From Nitrospira sp. (lineage in GTDB: Bacteria; Nitrospirota; Nitrospiria; Nitrospirales; Nitrospiraceae): DNA of 60,642 nucleotides. A program made the position numbers and the translations under genes. Position 1 is the stretch's first letter; the number at the start of each line of letters is the position of its first letter. The notes under the pieces were generated by a model. The model was not told where the DNA came from, ran no database searches, and was given only the letters and a program-made list of their open reading frames with translations. The DNA is taken from positions 13,303 through 73,944 of the forward strand of contig PLBR01000102.1 in the NCBI GenBank assembly GCA_003135435.1. The letters are read 5' to 3'. Below, one piece after another: positions 16,812 to 26,117 of the stretch.

Positions 16812-19232
16812 CTACTTCTTCTGCTTGGCGCGCGCCAGTGCCAGCGCCATGGCCATCATGCCGCCTGGCTGTGTCTGGCGCTCCGGAGCATGCTGGGGTG
16901 CTGGAGGACGCCGGTCATGCGGCTCGCGTGCCACTCTCGCAGAGATCTCGACGGGCGCGCGGCTTGAGGCCGAAGCACTGATGGGCGCATCGTCGAGGCG
17001 CATGGTCAGAGAGATGCGCTGGCGCTTCACATCGACGTCGAGCACCTTCACCTTCACGATCTGGCCAGGCTTGACGACCTCATGGGGGTCCTTGATGAAT
17101 TTATTTGCCAGCGAGGACACATGCACGAGACCGTCCTGATGCACACCGACGTCAACGAAGGCTCCAAACGCGGCGACGTTTGTGACGACGCCTTCGAGGA
17201 TCATGCCTCCTTTTAGATCGGTCAGCGATTCGATGCCCTCTTGGAATGTGGCCGTCTTAAATTCCGGGCGCGGATCCCTGCCCGGCTTTTCCAGCTCAGT
17301 CAGGATGTCACGCACCGTCGGCACGCCGAACTTCTCATCGGTAAAATCGGCGGGAGATAATCCCTTTAAAGCCGCCGGCTGACCCATCACGTCCACGATA
17401 CCTTTGCTGATGCGTGCGAGAATGCGCTCGACCACCGAATAGGCTTCCGGGTGGACCGAGGAACGATCGAGCGGATTGTCGCCGTCGTTGATACGCAGAA
17501 ATCCCGCGGCTTGTTCGAATGTCTTGTCGCCCAGCCGTGGCACCTTGCGTATCGTGGTGCGATTCGGGAAGGGGCCGTTCGCATCACGGTACTCGACGAT
17601 GTTCTTCGCCAGAACCTTGTTCAGACCGGACACCCGTTCGAGTAGCGGAGCCGATGCCGTATTGACGTCCACGCCCACGGCGTTGACGCAGTCTTCGACG
17701 GTTGCATCGAGCGAACGCGCCAGGGTCCGTTGGTTCACATCGTGCTGATATTGGCCGACGCCGATCGCCTTGGGATCGATCTTCACCAGCTCAGCCAGCG
17801 GGTCTTGCAGACGCCGGGCGATGGAGACGGCACCGCGCAGGCTGACATCCAGATCGGGAAACTCGGCAGCGGCGAAGGCCGACGCTGAATAGACCGACGC
17901 GCCGGCTTCGCTCACCACGATCTTGGCCACGTTGTGATCCGGCTTGTGAGCCACGACCACTTTAATCACCTCAATGGCAAGCTTGTCGGTCTCCCGGCTG
18001 CCGGTACCATTACCGATCGAGATCAGTTCGACGCCATGCTGGACGACCAACCGTGCCAGCGTCGCCAGTGATCCCTGCCAGTCATTGCGCGGCTGGAGCG
18101 GGTAAATGGTCGTGGTCTCCAGTAGCTTGCCGGTCGCATCGACAACCGCCACCTTGCAGCCCGTGCGGATGCCGGGGTCGAGGCCAAGCACGGCCTTTGG
18201 GCCTGCAGGCGCCGCCAGCAACAGCTCGTGCAGATTGCGACCGAAAATCTTGATCGCCTCGGCCTCCGCGGCTTCGCGCAACTGCACCAGCAGTTCCACT
18301 GTAAGATGCAGGTGCACCTTGCCGCGCCAGGTCCAATCGCAGACGCTCATGAGCCACTTGTCCGCGCGGCGGCCACGGTCTTCGATGCCAACATGCGCCG
18401 CGATCTTCGCGATGCCGGGATGCGGCACGGCGGCTTCGAGTGCTTCACCCAGGCCCAATTCAATCTTCAACACACCCAGCATGCGGCCACGGAACAGCGC
18501 CAGCGCGCGATGCGAAGGAGTGGTGCGGATGGTTTCAGAATAGGCATAGTAATCTCGGAACTTTTCTTCCTCGGCCGTTTCCTTGCCTTTCATCACGGTG
18601 GACGTGACGACGCCCAGATCCCACAGGCGGGTACGCAATTTGGCAAGCAGCTCGGCGGTCTCGGCAAAACGCTCGACCAGAATGTCTCGCGCACCCTCGA
18701 GCGCGGCTTTTTCGTCCGGCACATTGATGGCCTCAACACCCTCGGCAGCAGGCTTCACGTTCAAATACTTCGCCGCTTCCTGCTCCGGATCAAGCGTCGG
18801 GTCGGCGAACAGGGCATCGGCCAGCGGCTCCAGCCCTGCCTCGCGCGCAATTTGCGCTCGCGTGCGCCGCTTGGGCTTGTAGGGCAAATAGAGGTCTTCC
18901 AATGTTTGCTTGGTCGCGGCCGCCTCGATGGTGCCGCGCAGTACGCCGGTGAGTTTCCCCTGCTCCTCGATCGAAGACAGAATCGCCGCGCGGCGCAGCT
19001 CCAATTCCCGTAGATACAGGAGGCGCTCTTCCAACGTGCGCAAGTGTGTATCGTCCAGGTTGCCGGTGACCTCCTTGCGATAGCGTGCGATAAACGGCAC
19101 GGTCGAACCTTCGTCAAGCAGGGCCACTGCAGCCGCGACTTGATGGGGTCCCACGCCGAGTTCCCTGGCAATGAGTGGAACAATCTTCAGCTGTGCCGCG
19201 TCAGAAACTGTCTGGGTCATTGGAGAAACCAT
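16812..19232 (-). CDS. tex: Tex, S1-domain transcription accessory protein
   Basis: 806 aa. N-terminus IARELGV...[26 protein letters not shown], YqgF/HhH region and a C-terminal S1 domain ([21 protein letters not shown]). Confidence 0.9.
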
Positions 19233-19528
19233 CTGTGTCCGTTACCGATCCTTCCTAAAGCGGCGCATGGCCGAATGCCGGCCACTCGTGGTCACGCGCG
19301 CGTTCTTGTTAAGGTGCGTCACACGTCTTGGTCGTTGGATTAATAACGATTCTGTTGCGATTGAGGCGATAAAGTGCGCGCGTGACCCACGCGGCATCGA
19401 CCGGCCACCTAATCTACCAGGCACATCCTTCCGCTTTCAGATCCTGAACACACGTCAGATGGGTGCCAATCACTACACCGCCTGACATCACGGGACGGAG
19501 CCTCTTCGCCGGACAGTGACGTGCATCA

Positions 19529-19766
19529 CTAGCAGACTGCGGAAAACCGCTGCCAGCCCTCCGGAAATCCAATGGTCCGCATGTCTGGGACAAGCCTGGT
19601 CTGTCTGGTTATCTGGTCTATCTGGTTGGTCTGGTCTATCCGGTCTATCTGGTTCATTTCGTTCAACCAAACACACGAGACAGACCGAATAGACCAGATA
19701 AACGAGACAGACCAGACAGACCAAGTGAACAAGACAGACTGGCGGACTTTTTCAGCATCCTGCTAG
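19529..19766. mobile_element. MITE-like element, family 1 (CTAGCAG..CTGAAAA..CCGCCAG inverted ends)
   Basis: Left end CTAGCAGACTGCGGAAAACCGCTGCCAG. Right end CTGGCGGACTTTTTCAGCATCCTGCTAG. The interior is a long imperfect hairpin of GGTCTG/GGTCTAT repeats. No ORF. Confidence 0.55.
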
Positions 19767-20218
19767 GAGCGAAATGGTTGAACATCACCTGGCATACGCA
19801 ACATTTTATTCACTTCATCCAGATGCAGCTCTTCACCGACGATCATCTCTCTTGCAAACTCTTCCAAGAGGACGGACTTTCCTTCGGAGAGTTTCAGCAG
19901 TTCGTAATAGGCTGCGATGGCGCCTTTCTCGTGTTCTAAGCTTTCGCGCAAGATATCTCCCACATCATGCTTCTCTGTTTCCAATAACGTTCCGATTTTC
20001 AGCGAGGGGTGGCCGCCTAATAAGGTGACAAGTTCCCCGGCTTTATGCGCATGGGCAAGGCTCTCGTCCGCATTACCTTTCAGCCACGACACGATCGGAA
20101 TACGGTTATACCCATAAACCATCAGCGAGTAATGCATATAGCGCACGACTCCTGCTAACTCATGCTCCATAATGCGGTTGAGAATACCTACCGCCCGCTC
20201 CGTTTCTTTATCGTTCAT
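19763..20218 (-). CDS. bfr: bacterioferritin-family (ferritin-like) protein
   Basis: ILNRIMEHELAGVVRYMHYS....G......WL...A.ESL.HAHK.GE.V..LGGHP and EHEKGAIAAY match a four-helix ferritin-like pattern. The stop TAG lies inside the repeat end. Confidence 0.7.
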   Translation of the reverse strand: MNDKETERAVGILNRIMEHELAGVVRYMHYSLMVYGYNRIPIVSWLKGNADESLAHAHKAGELVTLLGGHPSLKIGTLLETEKHDVGDILRESLEHEKGAIAAYYELLKLSEGKSVLLEEFAREMIVGEELHLDEVNKMLRMPGDVQPFRS

Positions 20219-20809
20219 CTCATGTCTCCTTTTGTATAAGACGCGCCGCCGACTCTCGACGTTGCGCTAGGAGCATGTCCGACACTGCCGTTCGTGACGA
20301 GGCGAAGGAGGCGCAGCCAGATGCAAGGCCGCAGGCCCGAAAAAACCGGAGGTGTATTCGCTGGAATACGGTGAGGATTTTTTCTGGCCGAGAACGACGC
20401 AGATGGCTTCGGATCGCTCGCCGCAGTAGAACGGTCAATGTCGGACAGGCTCCTAACATCATGGCATGGCGAACGGACATGTCCGCCGGGAGGCAAGTCT
20501 ACTGCAAAACTCTGCGCGTATCCACCAGCCTCGCTCGAAATACAACACGTTACCGACCCGAGCCCGTCAGCCGTCCAACCCCCACGGAAAAGGAGGGCAC
20601 GCGGTATAGAATAAGAGCGTATAGCTGAGAGGCCGCCCTGAGCTTGAGGCATGCCCATTGGACCTTGTCCCACGCGCCCAGGGAGGCACATTGCGCCCAC
20701 TCTCAGAGGTGAGTTACAGTGAAACCCCGCTGAGTTGGAGAACCGTGTGATGGGACGAGTTGCTGAATCCATAGAAGGACGATCATTGCTGAGACAGCCC
20801 GGCGCGATC

Positions 20810-22270
20810 ATGTTCGTTTCATGTTATGAGCTGGGTCACCAACCTCTTGGCATCGCTCAGCCGATGGGATTTCTCGAGCAAGCCGGGTTTGCGCCGGTCG
20901 GTCTCGACATCGCGGTTGAGAACATGGATGAATCGGCCCTCCGGCTTGCGCGATTTGTCGGCATCTCGGTCCCCATGCACACGGCGCTCCGGCTTGGGGT
21001 GCGGGTCGCCGAGCTGATCCGGGCGATGAATCAGGACTGCCACATCTGTTTCTATGGACTGTACGCCTCTATCAATGCCGAATATTTGCTCCAGGGGCTG
21101 GCCGATTCTGTGGTGGGCGGAGAGTATGAGATCCCGCTGGTTTCACTCATCGAGGCGCTCGATCGAGGGCAGGCAATCAGCCTTCTCGAAGGAGTTAGTT
21201 CTCGAAACCGGGTGGTCGGCCCTTGGTTGCAGCGTGGCTATGCCTCAACAGCCTCGACGATCCCGCACCCAATCCCGAGTCGCAGCGGACTCCCGATGTT
21301 GGACCACTATGCTCGGCTCCAGCAGAATGGCACGGAGCGGTTGGTCGGGTACGCCGAGGCCAGTCGTGGATGCCTCCATCGCTGTCTCCATTGCCCGATC
21401 GTGCCGGTCTATGACGGGCGCTTCTTCCTCGTCCCGGAAGCTGTCGTCCTGGAGGACATCAGGCGCCAGGTGCATGCAGGCGCGACGCACATTACGTTTG
21501 GGGACCCGGATTTTTTGAACGGGCCGGGGCACTCCATGAGCATCGTTCGCGCAATGCACGAAGAGTTCCCACGCCTGACTTTTGATTTCACCGCAAAGAT
21601 CGAGCACCTCTTGAAGCGCCGCACGCTGATGCCAGATTTGAGTGCTCAGGGGTGCCTGTTCATAGTCTCTGCCGTGGAATCGTTCAGCGACCATGTTCTA
21701 GATCTGCTTCAGAAAGGGCATACAGGCGTTGATATCATGACGGCGCTCGGCATTCTGCGCGAGGCCGGCATTTCGCTTCGCCCATCGCTCGTCGCCTTCA
21801 CGCCCTGGACCAGCCTGAACGATTACCTCCTTATGTTAGATATGGTGGAAGCGCACGATCTCATCGACGCGACCGATCCAGTACAACTGAGTATTCGTCT
21901 CCTTATTCCACCAGGGTCGGCTCTTCTCGCTAAGTCTGACATTCAGCGGTTCCTCGGTCCTCTGGATCAGGCCGGCTTTCAATATCCGTGGACACACCCA
22001 GACGAGCGGATGGATCGGCTGCATCAGGCAGTGCGTGCGATCGTGGAAGCCAGTGCCAAGGATGAGGAAGATCCAATGATGACCTGTGGTCGCATTCGAG
22101 CGATTGCCGATGAGATAGCAGGCCGTCACGCTGAGTCCTCGACTCGCACAAGGGTACGCAAGCCTGATCGTCCGAAGCAGCCTCGTTTGACAGAATCTTG
22201 GTTCTGCTGCGCTGAGCCGACGACTCAACAATTCAAACCCCTGCTAAAAAATGGGCAGGTAGAAATCTAG
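20810..22270 (+). CDS. radical SAM protein with B12-binding-like N-domain and C-terminal CCAEP tail
   Basis: ATG 20810. CxxxCxxC = CLHRCLHC at 21371-21394. C-terminal WFCCAEPTTQ, with the Cys-Cys at 22205-22210. Confidence 0.8.
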   Translation: MFVSCYELGHQPLGIAQPMGFLEQAGFAPVGLDIAVENMDESALRLARFVGISVPMHTALRLGVRVAELIRAMNQDCHICFYGLYASINAEYLLQGLADSVVGGEYEIPLVSLIEALDRGQAISLLEGVSSRNRVVGPWLQRGYASTASTIPHPIPSRSGLPMLDHYARLQQNGTERLVGYAEASRGCLHRCLHCPIVPVYDGRFFLVPEAVVLEDIRRQVHAGATHITFGDPDFLNGPGHSMSIVRAMHEEFPRLTFDFTAKIEHLLKRRTLMPDLSAQGCLFIVSAVESFSDHVLDLLQKGHTGVDIMTALGILREAGISLRPSLVAFTPWTSLNDYLLMLDMVEAHDLIDATDPVQLSIRLLIPPGSALLAKSDIQRFLGPLDQAGFQYPWTHPDERMDRLHQAVRAIVEASAKDEEDPMMTCGRIRAIADEIAGRHAESSTRTRVRKPDRPKQPRLTESWFCCAEPTTQQFKPLLKNGQVEI

Positions 22271-22310
22271 AATTGATTGAATAACATATAGTTGAGAGGG
22301 GGAACAAGAA

Positions 22311-23021
22311 GTGGAATCTGAACTCATGACACAAGGCACTCGGATCCAGGAACTGTTGGTGTTGAATCTACCGGCAGTGGCGATCGCGTTTCGAGACACG
22401 GCCCCTGCGGGCATTCCGCGGGTCACCGCCCCTGCACCGGCAGGATGCGGCTATTGGAAGTTGGCAGCTGAAGGTCAGGTCTTCTATACGGAAGCATCGG
22501 ATCACTATACCTGCCCGGTCGGGGCCCATACCCACGGTGTGGATCTGCCACCACAGGTCGCGACTGAGTTGAACGGTCTGGTGCAGACCATGGTTGGGAT
22601 GCAGTATCTCACGATGGCAGAAATTCCAATGATCCCGCGTCGCCAAGAGACCTTTCACGTATCCGTGTATGCGCCACTCACGTCGGCCACCTTCACCCCG
22701 GACGTGGTGCTGGTCCGCGGGACCGTCAAGCAGCTGATGCTGCTGGCGGAGGCGGCACAGGCAGCGGGTATTGCCGGCGGTGGCGCGACGATGGGACGGC
22801 CGACCTGCGCCGTGCTGCCGGAATCACTGCAATCGGGACACACGGCCACGAGTTTGGGCTGTATCGGAAACCGCGTCTATACCGGGCTCGGGGATGATGA
22901 AGGCTATTTCGCCATTCCCGGTTCAAAGGTGGCCGACGTGGTCAGAAAGTTGACGGTCATCACCGAGGCCAATCGTCAGTTGGAAAAGTTTCATCGAGCC
23001 CGGGTTGGGACTCCTTCTTAA
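22311..23021 (+). CDS. DUF169-family protein
   Basis: GTG 22311 after AGGGGGA (ATG alternative at 22326). VAIAF......G.......GCGYW..A..G..FYT...DH..CPVGAH and RPTCA.LP match my memory of DUF169/COG2043. Confidence 0.65.
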   Translation: MESELMTQGTRIQELLVLNLPAVAIAFRDTAPAGIPRVTAPAPAGCGYWKLAAEGQVFYTEASDHYTCPVGAHTHGVDLPPQVATELNGLVQTMVGMQYLTMAEIPMIPRRQETFHVSVYAPLTSATFTPDVVLVRGTVKQLMLLAEAAQAAGIAGGGATMGRPTCAVLPESLQSGHTATSLGCIGNRVYTGLGDDEGYFAIPGSKVADVVRKLTVITEANRQLEKFHRARVGTPS

Positions 23022-23037
23022 CACTCCAGGAGCCGAC

Positions 23038-24330
23038 ATGCCGCGACTCCTCCTGCTCTTGCCGAGCACGACCTATCGAGCAGAGGCGTTCCTCAATGCA
23101 GCCGGCCTGCTGCATCTCTCCGTGACCATTGGGATGGAGCGGATTCCCGAAGGCCTTCCTGTCTCGTCGGACGATGTCTTGCTGCTCGATGTTCGACATC
23201 CACAAGCAGCCGCCCAGACCGTAGTTGCATTCGCCCGAGATCATCCGATCGATGCGGTGATCGGAGTAGACGATGTCACTGCTGTCACAGCCGCCGCCGT
23301 GGCGGAGGCTGTGGGATTGCCCCACAACTCTCTCGCCTCCGTCACAACCGCCGGAAATAAACGGCAGATGCGTGAGTTACTGTCCGGACAGGGCATTCCC
23401 GTACCTCGCCATAAAGTGTTCCCCCTCGACGGTGATCCAATGGAGTTCGCGAAACAGGTCGTCTATCCCTGCGTCGTGAAGCCACTGATCCTCTCCGCCA
23501 GCTGTGGGGTGATTCGTGCCAATGACGAGGAGGAGTTTAGTGGAGCGTTCCATCGGATTGGTGCGCTCCTCACCAATTTGGGTCTGGTGGAACGGGACGA
23601 GCAGGCCCGTTGGATCCTCGTCGAGGATTTTGTGCCGGGAATCGAAGTCGCATTGGAGGGCTTGCTCACACAGGGGGTGCTTCAGCCTTTGGCGATGTTC
23701 GATAAGCCTGATCCGCTCAACGGCCCATTCTTTGAAGAGACGATCTATATCACGCCTTCCCGTCTCGCCTTCGACCTGCAACAGAAAGTTGTCGCCTGTG
23801 CATCTCGAACGGCGGAGGCACTCGGACTATGGGAAGGGCCGGTGCACGGAGAGTTTCGCGTGAACGAGAAGGGGGTGTGGGTCATTGAATTGGCGGCACG
23901 GGCGATCGGTGGGCGCTGTTCCAGAACTCTGAGCTTCGCCTCCGGCATGTCGCTCGAAGAGCTGATCCTCCGCCACGCACTGCGGATGCCACTGCCTCCC
24001 CTCACCAGGCAAGAACAGGCTGCGGGAGTAATGATGCTTCCTATTCCATACGGCGGCAGGCTGCGTGAAGTGCGGGGGCAGGCTGAAGCGAAGGCGGTAC
24101 CTGGGATTGTAGAACTGACAGTAACGGCAGAGACTGGAGATGAACTGGTCCCGCTTCCGGAGGGGACGCGCTACCTGGGATTTCTCCTGGCACGGGGAAA
24201 GACACCGGAGGAGGTGGAGCGGTCGCTTCGGGACGCGCACCACCAATTGACGGTTGTCATCAGTGCCTCGCCGCCAACCGCAGCCGACGCGTTGTCATCG
24301 TCAGCCCAATCCCGAGCCATGAGGTTCTGA
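23038..24330 (+). CDS. ATP-grasp domain protein (carboxylate-amine ligase type)
   Basis: ATG 23038 after AGGAG. Pre-ATP-grasp region, NK..MRE.L...GIPVP, YPCVVKP, LVEDFVPG.EVA.EG, GP.HGEFR....GVWVIE.AAR. Confidence 0.75.
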   Translation: MPRLLLLLPSTTYRAEAFLNAAGLLHLSVTIGMERIPEGLPVSSDDVLLLDVRHPQAAAQTVVAFARDHPIDAVIGVDDVTAVTAAAVAEAVGLPHNSLASVTTAGNKRQMRELLSGQGIPVPRHKVFPLDGDPMEFAKQVVYPCVVKPLILSASCGVIRANDEEEFSGAFHRIGALLTNLGLVERDEQARWILVEDFVPGIEVALEGLLTQGVLQPLAMFDKPDPLNGPFFEETIYITPSRLAFDLQQKVVACASRTAEALGLWEGPVHGEFRVNEKGVWVIELAARAIGGRCSRTLSFASGMSLEELILRHALRMPLPPLTRQEQAAGVMMLPIPYGGRLREVRGQAEAKAVPGIVELTVTAETGDELVPLPEGTRYLGFLLARGKTPEEVERSLRDAHHQLTVVISASPPTAADALSSSAQSRAMRF

Positions 24331-24332
24331 AT

Positions 24333-24361
24333 GTCAGGTTGCCAGATTCCTGCAGCCTGAC
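24333..24361. terminator. hairpin between convergent genes (possible bidirectional terminator)
   Basis: GTCAGGTTGC...GCAGCCTGAC has 9 of 10 paired positions. No clear U-tract on either strand. Confidence 0.3.
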
Positions 24362-24366
24362 GTTGG

Positions 24367-24801
24367 CTAGTTCGGCTTCTTCCGAACCTCTGCGGTCATG
24401 TTCCGCGACCACTCGTCCAGACTCTTACCCTGTGCCGTCACGTCCGGGAGATCGGTCATATCGTGCACCCATGCGCCCTGCACGACCTCACCATCGTCCG
24501 TCACGCCCTTCTTGATAGCCTCAAGCTCTTTATCAAACCGTTCGGGGGCTTGTTCAAGGATGCGCCTGATCTTCCACTTCGTCGTCGGTTTGCCATCCGC
24601 ATCCAAGTCACAACCGTAGTGGACGAGATCCACCTTTCCAGTGCTGAGCACCTTGGCTAACATGCGATAGGTCACGCCGGAATTAGACTGAACCAGCGCA
24701 GCCTTATAGAGACGCTCGCATTTGTCCGGATCCACCTCCAACGCCGTGAGATCCTCGATAACTTTGGCGGCAACTTCCGGGGCTGTATCGACCTCTCCCA
24801 T
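24367..24801 (-). CDS. hypothetical protein
   Basis: 144-aa ORF with plausible composition. No recognisable family. Confidence 0.55.
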   Translation of the reverse strand: MGEVDTAPEVAAKVIEDLTALEVDPDKCERLYKAALVQSNSGVTYRMLAKVLSTGKVDLVHYGCDLDADGKPTTKWKIRRILEQAPERFDKELEAIKKGVTDDGEVVQGAWVHDMTDLPDVTAQGKSLDEWSRNMTAEVRKKPN

Positions 24802-24975
24802 AGTAGTCTTCCTCCGTGCAGTGGGTTGAGCCTCATGGCAATACCAGCCGTAACCCTACCAGACTGTTCCTGAACAGAGCAAGACGAGCACAGGCTGCAC
24901 AGAGAAGAGCGAATGGCTGTGGCGTATAGCTGATGGGTCGGAAAGAGTACCGACTGTCGGAAAGAGGCGTCGGTC

Positions 24976-25129
24976 CTAGCAGGATGCTGAAAATGTCCGC
25001 CAGCCTGTCTTGCTCATGTGGTCTGTTCGGGCTGTCTGGTTTATTTGGTTGAACCAGACTAACCGGATAAACCAGATCAACTCAACAAGCCACGCTCGGC
25101 GAGGACGGTATTTTTGACCATCCTGCGCG
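24976..25129. mobile_element. MITE-like element, family 1
   Basis: Left end CTAGCAGGATGCTGAAAATGTCCGCCAG. Degenerate right end GGCGAGGACGGTATTTTTGACCATCCTGCGCG. GGTCTG/GGTTTA core. Confidence 0.5.
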
Positions 25130-25244
25130 CTGTTCAGATGCCATCAGTGCTCGCTTGCCGCGACATAGTTCCAGAGTTGCTCAAGAATGCTAGATCTCCC
25201 CCTGAGACTCCGATACACTTCTACTCCTTGAAAAGGAGAGACCG

Positions 25245-26117
25245 ATGCGAGAGGAACGGATGACCAACTATTATATGCTGCTCGAACTCTTACCCATCGC
25301 AACGGACGCTGACATCAAAAAAGCCTGGCATGAACAAATCCAGGTCTGGCATCCGGATCGCTTCAATCATTCACCGACATTGCATCGCAAGGCGGAAGCC
25401 CGGACACAACTGATCAACCAGGCCTATCAAACCCTCAGTGACCCCATCGCACGCACACGCTACGACGCAATCGTGCAACCTTCGTCCTCTCTCCAGCCGT
25501 CTCCACGCCCATACCCACAACCGTACGCATCCACTCCATCACGCCAACAAACCCCACGATCACGGGAGGCACGCGGACCGCAATCGCTCATCATGCTCTC
25601 ACGGACAGGCCAACCCAAACTCATGGTGCCTGCCATTCATCTCTACGTCGACCCTCGGGAGCACTTCCCCTACGACTTTCAAGGCTTCGTGCGCATCGCT
25701 GGAGCCATTCGAGAGTCCCTTCCAGCCGGAGGCTATGCCATTGCCGAAGCACCCGAACTCTTATGCATCAAGAGCATCGGCATGGAAGAACTCTATACGA
25801 TCTTCTCGAATCCCTCCGACAATCGCCTGCCCTTTCTTCACGACCTCGAACAATTTCTCGCCTTCCCCTCTCGTTTTCTTGTCATTGAAGGGACGCTCCA
25901 ACACCGCAAAGCCGGAGGTCGCCTCAGTCAATATCACAAGATTGGATTGATAGACTTCCTCGACGCCCTCACCGCGCGATATGGCATCCAGATCATCTAT
26001 GCAGATACGCGTGACGAGGCGGAGGAACGGGTTGCCAACCTCGCCGCCCTGCACTATGCCTACTATTTTGCCGAGCAACAGGGATTCGGGCGCTGTCTCA
26101 CAGAGAATGATTTGTAG
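25245..26117 (+). CDS. J-domain protein fused to a degenerate ERCC4-like nuclease-fold domain
   Basis: RBS AAGGAGAG. J-domain YYMLLEL......IKKAW.....WHPDR (HPD at 25350-25358). Pro/Gln-rich linker. C-terminal YVDPRE...LPAGGYAI....LCIKSIGMEEL resembles ERCC4 VDxRE / GDY / ERKxxxD with substituted catalytic positions. Confidence 0.7.
   Translation: MREERMTNYYMLLELLPIATDADIKKAWHEQIQVWHPDRFNHSPTLHRKAEARTQLINQAYQTLSDPIARTRYDAIVQPSSSLQPSPRPYPQPYASTPSRQQTPRSREARGPQSLIMLSRTGQPKLMVPAIHLYVDPREHFPYDFQGFVRIAGAIRESLPAGGYAIAEAPELLCIKSIGMEELYTIFSNPSDNRLPFLHDLEQFLAFPSRFLVIEGTLQHRKAGGRLSQYHKIGLIDFLDALTARYGIQIIYADTRDEAEERVANLAALHYAYYFAEQQGFGRCLTENDL

Follow-up and report, generated by a model that had tools for sequence, protein, structure and literature searches.

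A Cys-type relative of the arsinothricin enzyme ArsL in Nitrospira and its probable module with DUF169 and ATP-grasp ligase genes

ArsL, a radical S-adenosylmethionine (SAM) enzyme, cleaves SAM reductively at the C-gamma-S bond, which gives methylthioadenosine and a 3-amino-3-carboxypropyl (ACP) radical or Fe-C(ACP) species, and the ACP group ends on As(III). The As(III) is bound by the three Cys residues in ArsL's RCCLKC motif, which are needed for product formation and not for SAM cleavage, and ArsL without its tail or without its substrate releases 2-aminobutyrate. ArsL is so far the only radical SAM (rSAM) enzyme of canonical fold shown to cleave SAM at this bond, and its discoverers predicted that there would be more. 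In this study a stretch of 60,642 nucleotides of Nitrospira sp. (assembly GCA_003135435.1, contig PLBR01000102.1, positions 13,303 to 73,944; the whole stretch is called the window below) was analyzed, in which an rSAM gene related to arsL is followed by, and apparently transcribed together with, a DUF169 gene and an ATP-grasp ligase gene. The three genes probably form one conserved functional module around an ArsL-type rSAM enzyme, which occurs in at least five bacterial phyla and the product of which would be an amino-acid-derived compound.

The rSAM gene (gene 1; positions 20750-22270, + strand, 506 aa, stop codon TAG at 22268-22270) encodes a Cys-type protein with a CCAEP tail. It scored 669.8 bits (cut-off 500; E = 1.9e-201, model positions 3-467 of 468) on the NCBIfam model NF040546, the CUAEP/CCAEP-tail radical SAM (seleno)protein family that the original prediction had named. 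The second-best NCBIfam match was the ArsL model NF040542, below its cut-off at 321.2 against 450 bits, and all other NCBIfam models gave at most 36 bits. True ArsL sequences score 516-656 bits on NF040542, and the two models cross-match at about 320-345 bits. By BLASTP, gene 1 was 33% identical to the true ArsL P0233 over 420 aa (E = 7e-82), in an alignment that spans residues 1-407 and ends just before both tails. Judged by these sequence comparisons, the CUAEP/CCAEP family is a sister of ArsL and homologous to it over the whole catalytic core; the window enzyme is not ArsL itself, as it shows neither the score nor the RCCxKC tail of ArsL.

The CxxxCxxC motif CLHRCLHC (21371-21394, + strand), read directly from the sequence as had been proposed, holds the predicted ligands of the radical-SAM [4Fe-4S] cluster, C188, C192 and C195, which are invariant in the family alignment, and the Pfam model Radical_SAM matched at 35.2 bits. 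For the B12-binding-like N-terminal domain of the original prediction, the match to PF02310 stayed below threshold (28.1 against 32.1 bits, E = 2e-6). The TIGR models for B12-rSAM enzymes gave at most 36 bits against cut-offs of 251-650, which places the protein outside class B. In a 2026 review, AprD4 and the ArsL homologues group with B12-radical SAM enzymes in similarity networks and bind no cobalamin. The AlphaFold2 model of gene 1 had a mean predicted local distance difference test (pLDDT) score of 91.9, and its best Foldseek matches were OxsB, AprD4, TsrM and MgmA, at template modeling (TM) scores of about 0.6-0.65. Residues 451-480 of the tail, which include WFCCAEP, reached a pLDDT of 76-85 after a disordered linker (residues 441-450, pLDDT 50); because confidence is high again after the linker, the C-terminal arm is predicted to dock rather than flop.

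Relatives of gene 1 formed 466 clusters at E < 1e-30 in a representative library of 1.84 billion proteins, many of them terminating exactly at ...E.W[FY]C, and at least 594 relatives were found in a scan of one genome per species. The loci of the best 80 of these at least 594 relatives were analyzed. They came from Nitrospirota, Methylomirabilota, Acidobacteriota, Planctomycetota, Gemmatimonadota, Chloroflexota, Poribacteria and others, the Chloroflexota including the cultured Ktedonosporobacter rubrisoli. That the function of the family is unassigned, as had been thought, is in agreement with the literature, in which the sole mention found was one sentence stating that little is known of its structure and function (Haft and Gwadz 2022, bioRxiv 10.1101/2022.07.06.499078). 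The name 'CUAEP' does not appear in a 2026 review of selenoproteomes, and a search of the literature on CUAEP/CCAEP, ArsL-like families and DUF169 function found no characterization. Likewise, no description was found there of the sister relationship with ArsL, of the module with ligase, Nfu, YggX and DUF169, of the fusions described below, or of the predominance of selenocysteine (Sec) together with a covarying hairpin resembling a Sec insertion sequence (SECIS). The sister relationship and the partners Nfu, YggX and CDGSH are additions to what had been read from the window.

The arm motif WFCCAEP with its vicinal Cys pair (22199-22219, + strand) does not stand at the extreme C-terminus, where it had been placed, since the chain runs on for 19 residues beyond its second Cys (codon TGC, 22208-22210). 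The tail motif PRLTE.W[FY]C[CU]AEPT is conserved across phyla, and W[FY]-C-[C/U]-A-E-P was present in 74 of the 80 loci. The codon after WFC could be classified in these 74; it was TGA, in frame with AEPT..Q, in 58 and a Cys codon in 16. It had been supposed that Sec replaces the first Cys of the pair; by the codons, it is the second residue that is Sec (C-U) in the seleno members. A hairpin of 5-8 bp with an AGTT(N) loop, starting about 15 nt 3' of the TGA, was found in 53 of 57 CU loci, and its stems covary (GGGCC/GGCCC, GGGTC/GACCC, GGACC/GGTCC, GAGCC/GGCTC). The stems were counted with flexible positions because two loop sizes blur a fixed register. At the same place the CC loci had a median of 1.5 pairs and the window had none. 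The check for TGA and SECIS elements in homologues that had been suggested with the original prediction was thus positive for the family, while gene 1 itself has the codon TGC and no SECIS-like hairpin downstream, and so is to be read as the Cys form of a mostly selenoprotein family. The third Cys of ArsL is absent from the gene 1 tail, which has no Cys at +3 and carries an invariant Glu-Pro two residues on. An arm with two soft ligands and a carboxylate would be apt to hold a two-coordinate species (for instance Hg(II) or a chalcogen bridge), or As or Sb with a hydroxyl. Vicinal CC/CU motifs have been noted in the metal-handling proteins MerT and HgcA and in the SAO system (Haft and Gwadz 2022, bioRxiv 10.1101/2022.07.06.499078).

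Gene 3 (23038-24330, + strand, 430 aa, ATG start) encodes an ATP-grasp protein with the architecture of an L-amino-acid ligase. In line with the ATP-grasp ligase first read there, three Pfam domains were above gathering scores, namely ATP-grasp_4 (PF13535, 101.5 bits), LAL_C2 (PF18603, 65.4 bits) and ATPgrasp_N (PF18130, 36.8 bits). Its closest solved relative was the L-amino-acid ligase BL00235 (3VOT; E = 6.2e-35 over residues 33-407), followed by BacD (E = 5.5e-15) and RizA (4WD3; E = 1.8e-5). Its NCBIfam scores were far under every curated cut-off; matches to BacD and DdaF were weak, with 57 bits against 850 for the BacD model. Orthologues are 46-65% identical to the window protein across phyla, with a mean column identity of 61%, and make up a large, highly conserved group annotated only as 'ATP-grasp domain-containing protein'. 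From its architecture, gene 3 is predicted to be a dipeptide-forming L-amino-acid ligase. BL00235 makes Met-Gly and Met-Met (PMC6920838), so its N-terminal substrate is itself an amino acid of the ACP type.

Gene 2 (22311-23021, + strand, 236 aa, GTG start) is a DUF169 gene, as had been read, and matched PF02596 at 90.4 bits against a gathering score of 27 (model positions 1-208 of 209); no NCBIfam model matched it. Numbered from ATG 22326, C41, H60, C63, C161, C179 and R183 are invariant or near-invariant across phyla, and the conserved Cys/His set would suit a metal or Fe-S site. Its AlphaFold2 model had a pLDDT of 82.7 and was built from a comparatively shallow alignment. No solved relative of DUF169 was found by sequence, profile or fold search; fold matches to cystathionine gamma-lyase (E >= 0.2, TM <= 0.25) were not meaningful, and hhalign found no similarity to the MerB domain. 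Fusions of the rSAM protein with DUF169, 736-760 aa in length, occur on several Nitrospirota contigs (e.g., NCBI TMQ27064.1).

Linkage was counted in the 42 of the 80 loci that had at least 3 kb on both sides, a partner being a gene within 3 kb of the rSAM gene. Ligase orthologues were called by phmmer at more than 300 bits, and Nfu, either Nfu_N plus NifU or NifU alone, was counted with a specific Nfu query. The orthologous ATP-grasp gene was a partner in 20/42 loci, Nfu in 15/42, YggX (Iron_traffic) in 13/42, a formyltransferase-like (Fmt-like) gene in 8/42, DUF169 in 6/42 and a CDGSH Fe-S protein in 4/42. Among all 80 loci, Nfu or YggX stood immediately beside the rSAM gene in 44 and CDGSH in five, and in many a small CxxC-bearing NifU domain lay directly between rSAM and ligase. 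The rSAM-ligase linkage was seen in five phyla, with the ligase upstream or downstream and on either strand, and this variation points to selection on the linkage rather than to inherited gene order. The arrangements were ligase-rSAM-Nfu in Blastocatellia, CDGSH | rSAM-NifU-ligase in Methylomirabilota, rSAM-Nfu-DUF169-ligase in Planctomycetota, Fmt-like | YggX-rSAM | ligase in Chloroflexota, and rSAM-DUF169-ligase in Nitrospira of the window type. The window itself has no homologue of Nfu, YggX, CDGSH, Fmt-like or MerB proteins. In 80 metagenome loci centered on the ligase, many of them short, Nfu was present in 34, rSAM in at least 21 and DUF169 in 12, and all four of the ligase orthologues chosen for their long contigs adjoin an rSAM gene, with NifU or DUF169. 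In the locus L125 the ligase lies between metE and a class I methyltransferase gene, with Nfu/NfuA as partner.

The link between rSAM and ligase is strong, and that of DUF169 is real but lineage-limited. The linkage that had been proposed for all three genes therefore stands for the ligase and, for DUF169, in a minority of loci, although DUF169 is fused to the rSAM protein in some Nitrospirota. Absence of linkage elsewhere, which had been named as a result that would count against the cluster, was not what was found; linkage recurs across phyla, and chance adjacency of the trio is thereby ruled out. In Nitrospira sp. Nam74 the trio is present among different neighbor genes, and it therefore behaves as a unit.

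Several further observations concern single loci or lineages. One fusion of the rSAM protein with MerB (P0128, JGI sample 3300047160, a single contig) scored 623 bits on NF040546, and its CC motif is immediately followed by a MerB (alkylmercury lyase) domain at the C-terminus. Its contig also carries a second MerB gene, a sulfotransferase, an FGGY kinase and a carbamoyltransferase; no MerB homologue was found in the 160 loci retrieved. In L163 (8075-13272), rSAM-NifU-ligase is followed downstream by genes for a MerR regulator, an HMA-domain P-type ATPase and an ArsP_1 permease; in L164 (96-3541) and L166 (7344-10874), genes of a peptide/nickel-type ATP-binding cassette (ABC) transporter (SBP_bac_5 and BPD_transp) directly adjoin the module. 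In four loci of Ktedonobacteria (L030, L032, L046 and L051) an ArsB/CitMHS-type permease gene is 2-8 kb upstream of rSAM, before Fmt-like | YggX-rSAM. This may reflect inherited gene order only, as one lineage is concerned.

Taken together, the comparisons allow a model of how the module may work, in which ACP would be transferred, as by ArsL, to an atom bound by the CC arm, ATP-dependent dipeptide ligation would follow, and DUF169 would assist with metals or redox chemistry; as a whole this model is given a probability of about 0.4. Gene 1 would cleave SAM as ArsL does, giving the ACP group, and this group would be moved to a soft atom (a metalloid, a chalcogen or a metal) held by the docked Cys-Cys arm, which is CU elsewhere. 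The product would be an amino acid of the gamma-substituted 2-aminobutyrate type, and the ligase would use ATP to couple this compound, or something derived from it, with another amino acid into a dipeptide. DUF169 would serve the rSAM enzyme in metal handling, as an Fe-S protein or in electron transfer, the same role that Nfu, YggX and CDGSH would have elsewhere, and such an accessory might, for example, put back the cluster iron to which the ACP group is bound. That iron and Fe-S trafficking proteins so regularly accompany the enzyme suggests that the rSAM cluster needs dedicated supply or repair. The original prediction had placed ligation before radical chemistry; given the relationship with ArsL, the reverse order is likelier. 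Its two roles for the redox-active tail also fared differently, because that of a substrate arm agrees with the biochemistry of ArsL whereas that of an intramolecular reductant belongs to a rival explanation considered below. More tentatively, and with clearly more doubt than belief, the family might be a second and much larger ArsL-type branch, with members in nitrifiers and in many phyla of soil and fresh water, in which the Cys-Sec or Cys-Cys arm holds an atom other than arsenic (Se, S, Sb, Te or a soft metal); the new carbon-heteroatom bond would be formed with ACP, and the product, made into a dipeptide, would represent an unseen class of organo-element metabolites or cofactors.

A number of points weigh against the ACP-transfer model. 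Cleavage of the ACP type by members of NF040546 is extrapolated from 33% identity to ArsL, and the tail offers two soft ligands, against the three that bind As(III) in ArsL, and might therefore bind no metal(loid) whatever. The surroundings of the module in the window contain no arsenic, selenium or mercury genes. In roughly half of the well-flanked loci the ligase is not nearby, and DUF169 is missing from most loci. There are also ligase-Nfu pairs with no rSAM gene within several kb, in L100 (1732-3572), L142 (1331-3171) and L125 (6959-9044), which suggests that the pairing of ligase and Nfu is independent of rSAM, and the role of the ligase may be tied to Fe-S metabolism rather than to the product of the rSAM enzyme. 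Moreover, the conservation of the ligase, at 61%, looks more like that of a housekeeping gene than that of variable secondary metabolism.

Other explanations were weighed as well. The tail could be a redox arm, that is, a Cys-Cys dithiol or Cys-Sec selenolthiol on a swinging segment that gives an H atom or electrons to a radical intermediate, either on a separate organic substrate or on the ACP radical, which would be reduced to 2-aminobutyrate for the ligase; the thioredoxin-like CxxC of Nfu, or else DUF169, would then reduce the tail again. Sec is typical of redox catalysis and thioredoxin reductase offers a parallel in its GCUG tail, so that the Sec at the second position in 58/74 homologues fits this idea, as do the 2-aminobutyrate released by ArsL without tail or substrate, the CxxC-bearing NifU domain between rSAM and ligase in many loci, and a tail offering two soft ligands only. 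However, ArsL, the only characterized relative, binds its substrate atom with the homologous vicinal Cys pair, the fusion with MerB points to carbon-metal chemistry, and vicinal CC/CU is otherwise noted in the metal-handling MerT, HgcA and SAO system (bioRxiv 10.1101/2022.07.06.499078), and a redox arm is therefore considered unlikely. The frequency of Nfu and YggX beside rSAM (44/80 loci, and CDGSH in 5/80) could alternatively mean that the whole set, rSAM with Nfu, YggX, CDGSH or DUF169 and the ATP-grasp enzyme, serves iron and Fe-S homeostasis, by supplying or repairing clusters or by making a small thiol or chelator ligand, the ligase product serving iron handling. Nfu is indeed the most frequent neighbor of the ligase (34/80), also where rSAM is not nearby, the transporters adjoining the module in L164 and L166 are of the peptide/nickel type, and a ferritin-like gene lies divergently upstream of the trio in the window. 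This ferritin neighbor is not conserved in Nitrospira sp. Nam74, though, no suf or isc genes accompany the module, and the module of the window has neither Nfu nor YggX. Any radical SAM enzyme of an aerobe might just require a cluster donor of its own, and the presence of Nfu and YggX would then call for no role in homeostasis; a function in homeostasis is thus held to be decidedly unlikely.

That ArsL is the closest characterized family raises the possibility of an arsenic-specific isozyme, which would carry out the ArsL reaction on As(III) while the ligase makes an arsenical 'Trojan-horse' dipeptide antibiotic (cf. phosphinothricin and rhizocticin). L-amino-acid ligases do build dipeptide antimetabolites of the bacilysin type, and gene 3 weakly matched BacD and DdaF; an ArsB-like permease was noted 2-4 kb upstream in the four Ktedonobacteria loci and ArsP_1 6 kb off in L163. 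Such an isozyme appears quite improbable, since gene 1 is under the ArsL cut-off (321 against 450), the third As(III)-ligating Cys is absent, the ArsB-like neighbor is limited to one lineage, no arsM or ars operon is beside the module in the window or most loci, and the very wide distribution and strong ligase conservation misfit a niche antibiotic. As B12-like rSAM and ATP-grasp enzymes both occur in pathways for ribosomally synthesized and post-translationally modified peptides (RiPPs), the two could also modify a ribosomal precursor peptide, and gene 1 weakly matched TIGR03975, a model for RiPP C-methyltransferases (33 bits, cut-off 282). This would be very surprising, as the gaps of 40 and 16 nt are too small for a precursor gene and LAL_C2 on an ATP-grasp protein is typical of ligases using free amino acids. 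A search for precursor peptides in 20219-20760 gave small open reading frames (ORFs) that are not conserved, so that the original prediction is borne out on this point too, the upstream 530 nt holding no conserved small ORF in a spacer diverged except for its last ~60 nt; no protease or transporter was consistently present.

The layout of the trio was as described before, with three + strand genes separated by 40 nt (genes 1 and 2) and 16 nt (genes 2 and 3), each with its own ribosome-binding site read from the sequence: GGAGA (20737-20741) ahead of ATG 20750 for gene 1, AGGGGG (22297-22302) 8 nt ahead of GTG 22311 for gene 2, and AGGAG (23028-23032) 5 nt ahead of ATG 23038 for gene 3. The exception was the start of gene 1, formerly set at 20810. 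ATG 20750 is kept in six Nitrospira loci whereas ATG 20810 is replaced by other codons in two of them (L003 and L081), the residues 5' of 20810 (SLLRQPGAI; SLLRxPGAI in homologues) are conserved and the homologues are of 506 aa, and for these reasons the true start is almost certainly ATG 20750. Ahead of it, at 20689-20731 (+ strand), is an element near-invariant in the six Nitrospira loci, CATTGCGCCCACTCTCAG.GGTG.GTTACAGTGA, which is ~45 nt long, lies 19-61 nt before the conserved start codon and contains TTGCGC and TACAGT with 18 nt between them. It resembles a promoter or operator. The rest of the 530-nt spacer has diverged among Nitrospira relatives apart from the last ~60 nt; a strict sigma-70 scan called no promoter, this element included. 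The terminator scan gave a single terminator-like site, within the upstream spacer. Rfam over the whole window gave nothing at gathering scores, and hence no riboswitch or known RNA upstream, and at E <= 1 over 19200-25300 only spurious miRNA matches on a tandem repeat.

By run metadata and protein names, the window belongs to a Nitrospira-like bacterium of peat, soil or permafrost metagenomes. Soil metatranscriptome contigs map to parts of all three genes, the rSAM gene at 21388-21596 (X28), DUF169 at 22503-22717 (X27) and the ligase in several pieces (X27 and X28). One contig spans the junction of DUF169 and ligase (22841-23393), in a library that is labeled RNA-Seq and may contain DNA.

The tandem repeat lies in two arrays of 9-nt units, at 19596-19653 (CTGGTCTAT x6.6) and 19666-19739 (ACCAGACAG x6.4), which look roughly reverse-complementary and together probably form one long hairpin; this would explain the weak mir-2574 matches of Rfam on both strands. 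The spacer that separates rSAM from the ferritin-like gene contains a rod-like hairpin of 193 nt (20266-20458), closed by AGGAGCATGTCCGACA...TGTCGGACAGGCTCCT, with RNAfold z-scores of -7.1 (+ strand) and -9.4 (- strand). Contigs from several soil metatranscriptomes stack on 20291-20455 and diverge on both sides. The hairpin has no Rfam match, is not kept beside rSAM in relatives, and may represent either a small RNA, perhaps of the 6S kind, or a leader of the ferritin-like gene. The neighbors in the window (Tex, the ferritin-like gene, a 144-aa ORF, a DnaJ-domain protein, a SpoU methylase and a TPR protein) are unrelated to the trio. The 144-aa ORF (24367-24801, - strand), convergent with the ligase and without a Pfam match, also follows the trio in two other Nitrospira loci (L052 and L161) and may travel with the module. 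A further locus (L002, CAZCWX010000254.1), labeled 'uncultured Enterobacteriaceae bacterium', has a trio with 84% protein identity to the Nitrospira-type genes of the window, and its taxon label is probably a binning or labeling error.

Based on the results of this study, the CUAEP/CCAEP family is the obvious place to look for more enzymes that cleave SAM at C-gamma-S, as it is the closest relative of ArsL, far more widespread and mostly selenium-dependent. It is found largely in soil and freshwater phyla, many of them probably aerobic, and its conserved partner set suggests a complete small pathway. The window holds a Cys-type member, which can be expressed without selenocysteine machinery and so makes a direct test possible. 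A result on function would define new carbon-element bond chemistry, assign roles to DUF169 proteins as well as to a large ATP-grasp group that has no name yet, and possibly reveal a metabolite of Nitrospira, a key genus in nitrification.

Among known systems, the vicinal CC or CU at a flexible end of the protein recalls HgcA, MerT and the proteins of the SAO system, in which it is taken to bind a soft metal, and the same holds for the vicinal Cys pair at the C-terminus of MerA; gene 1 is unrelated in sequence to all of these, the module in the window has no mercury genes near it, and DUF169 is unlike MerB. Apart from ArsL, only Dph2 of diphthamide biosynthesis is known to generate an ACP radical from SAM by means of a [4Fe-4S] cluster, and the diphthamide pathway likewise includes an ATP-dependent step further on and draws electrons from Dph3, a small iron protein. 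However, Dph2 has an unrelated fold without CxxxCxxC and without sequence similarity to gene 1, and acts on a protein histidine. Gene 3 shares the three-domain ATP-grasp architecture with LAL_C2 of BL00235, BacD/YwfE, RizA and DdaF, from which it differs in forming its own orthologous group under the curated cut-offs. The closest likeness is to ArsL (NF040542) of the arsinothricin arsQML cluster, which like gene 1 has a Rossmann-like N-terminal domain without cobalamin, a CxxxCxxC barrel and a C-terminal vicinal Cys pair. The tail of ArsL is a terminal R-C-C-L-K-C, while that of the gene 1 family is W-F-C-C/U-A-E-P plus 5-30 more residues, and ArsL has a third tail Cys where the gene 1 family has none and, in most members, Sec in place of the second Cys. 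No ArsM-like ORF was seen in the list of ORFs of the window, which was not scanned with Pfam over its full length. The partners also differ, as those of ArsL are ArsM and the permease ArsQ, whereas those of the gene 1 family are the L-amino-acid ligase, DUF169, Nfu and YggX.

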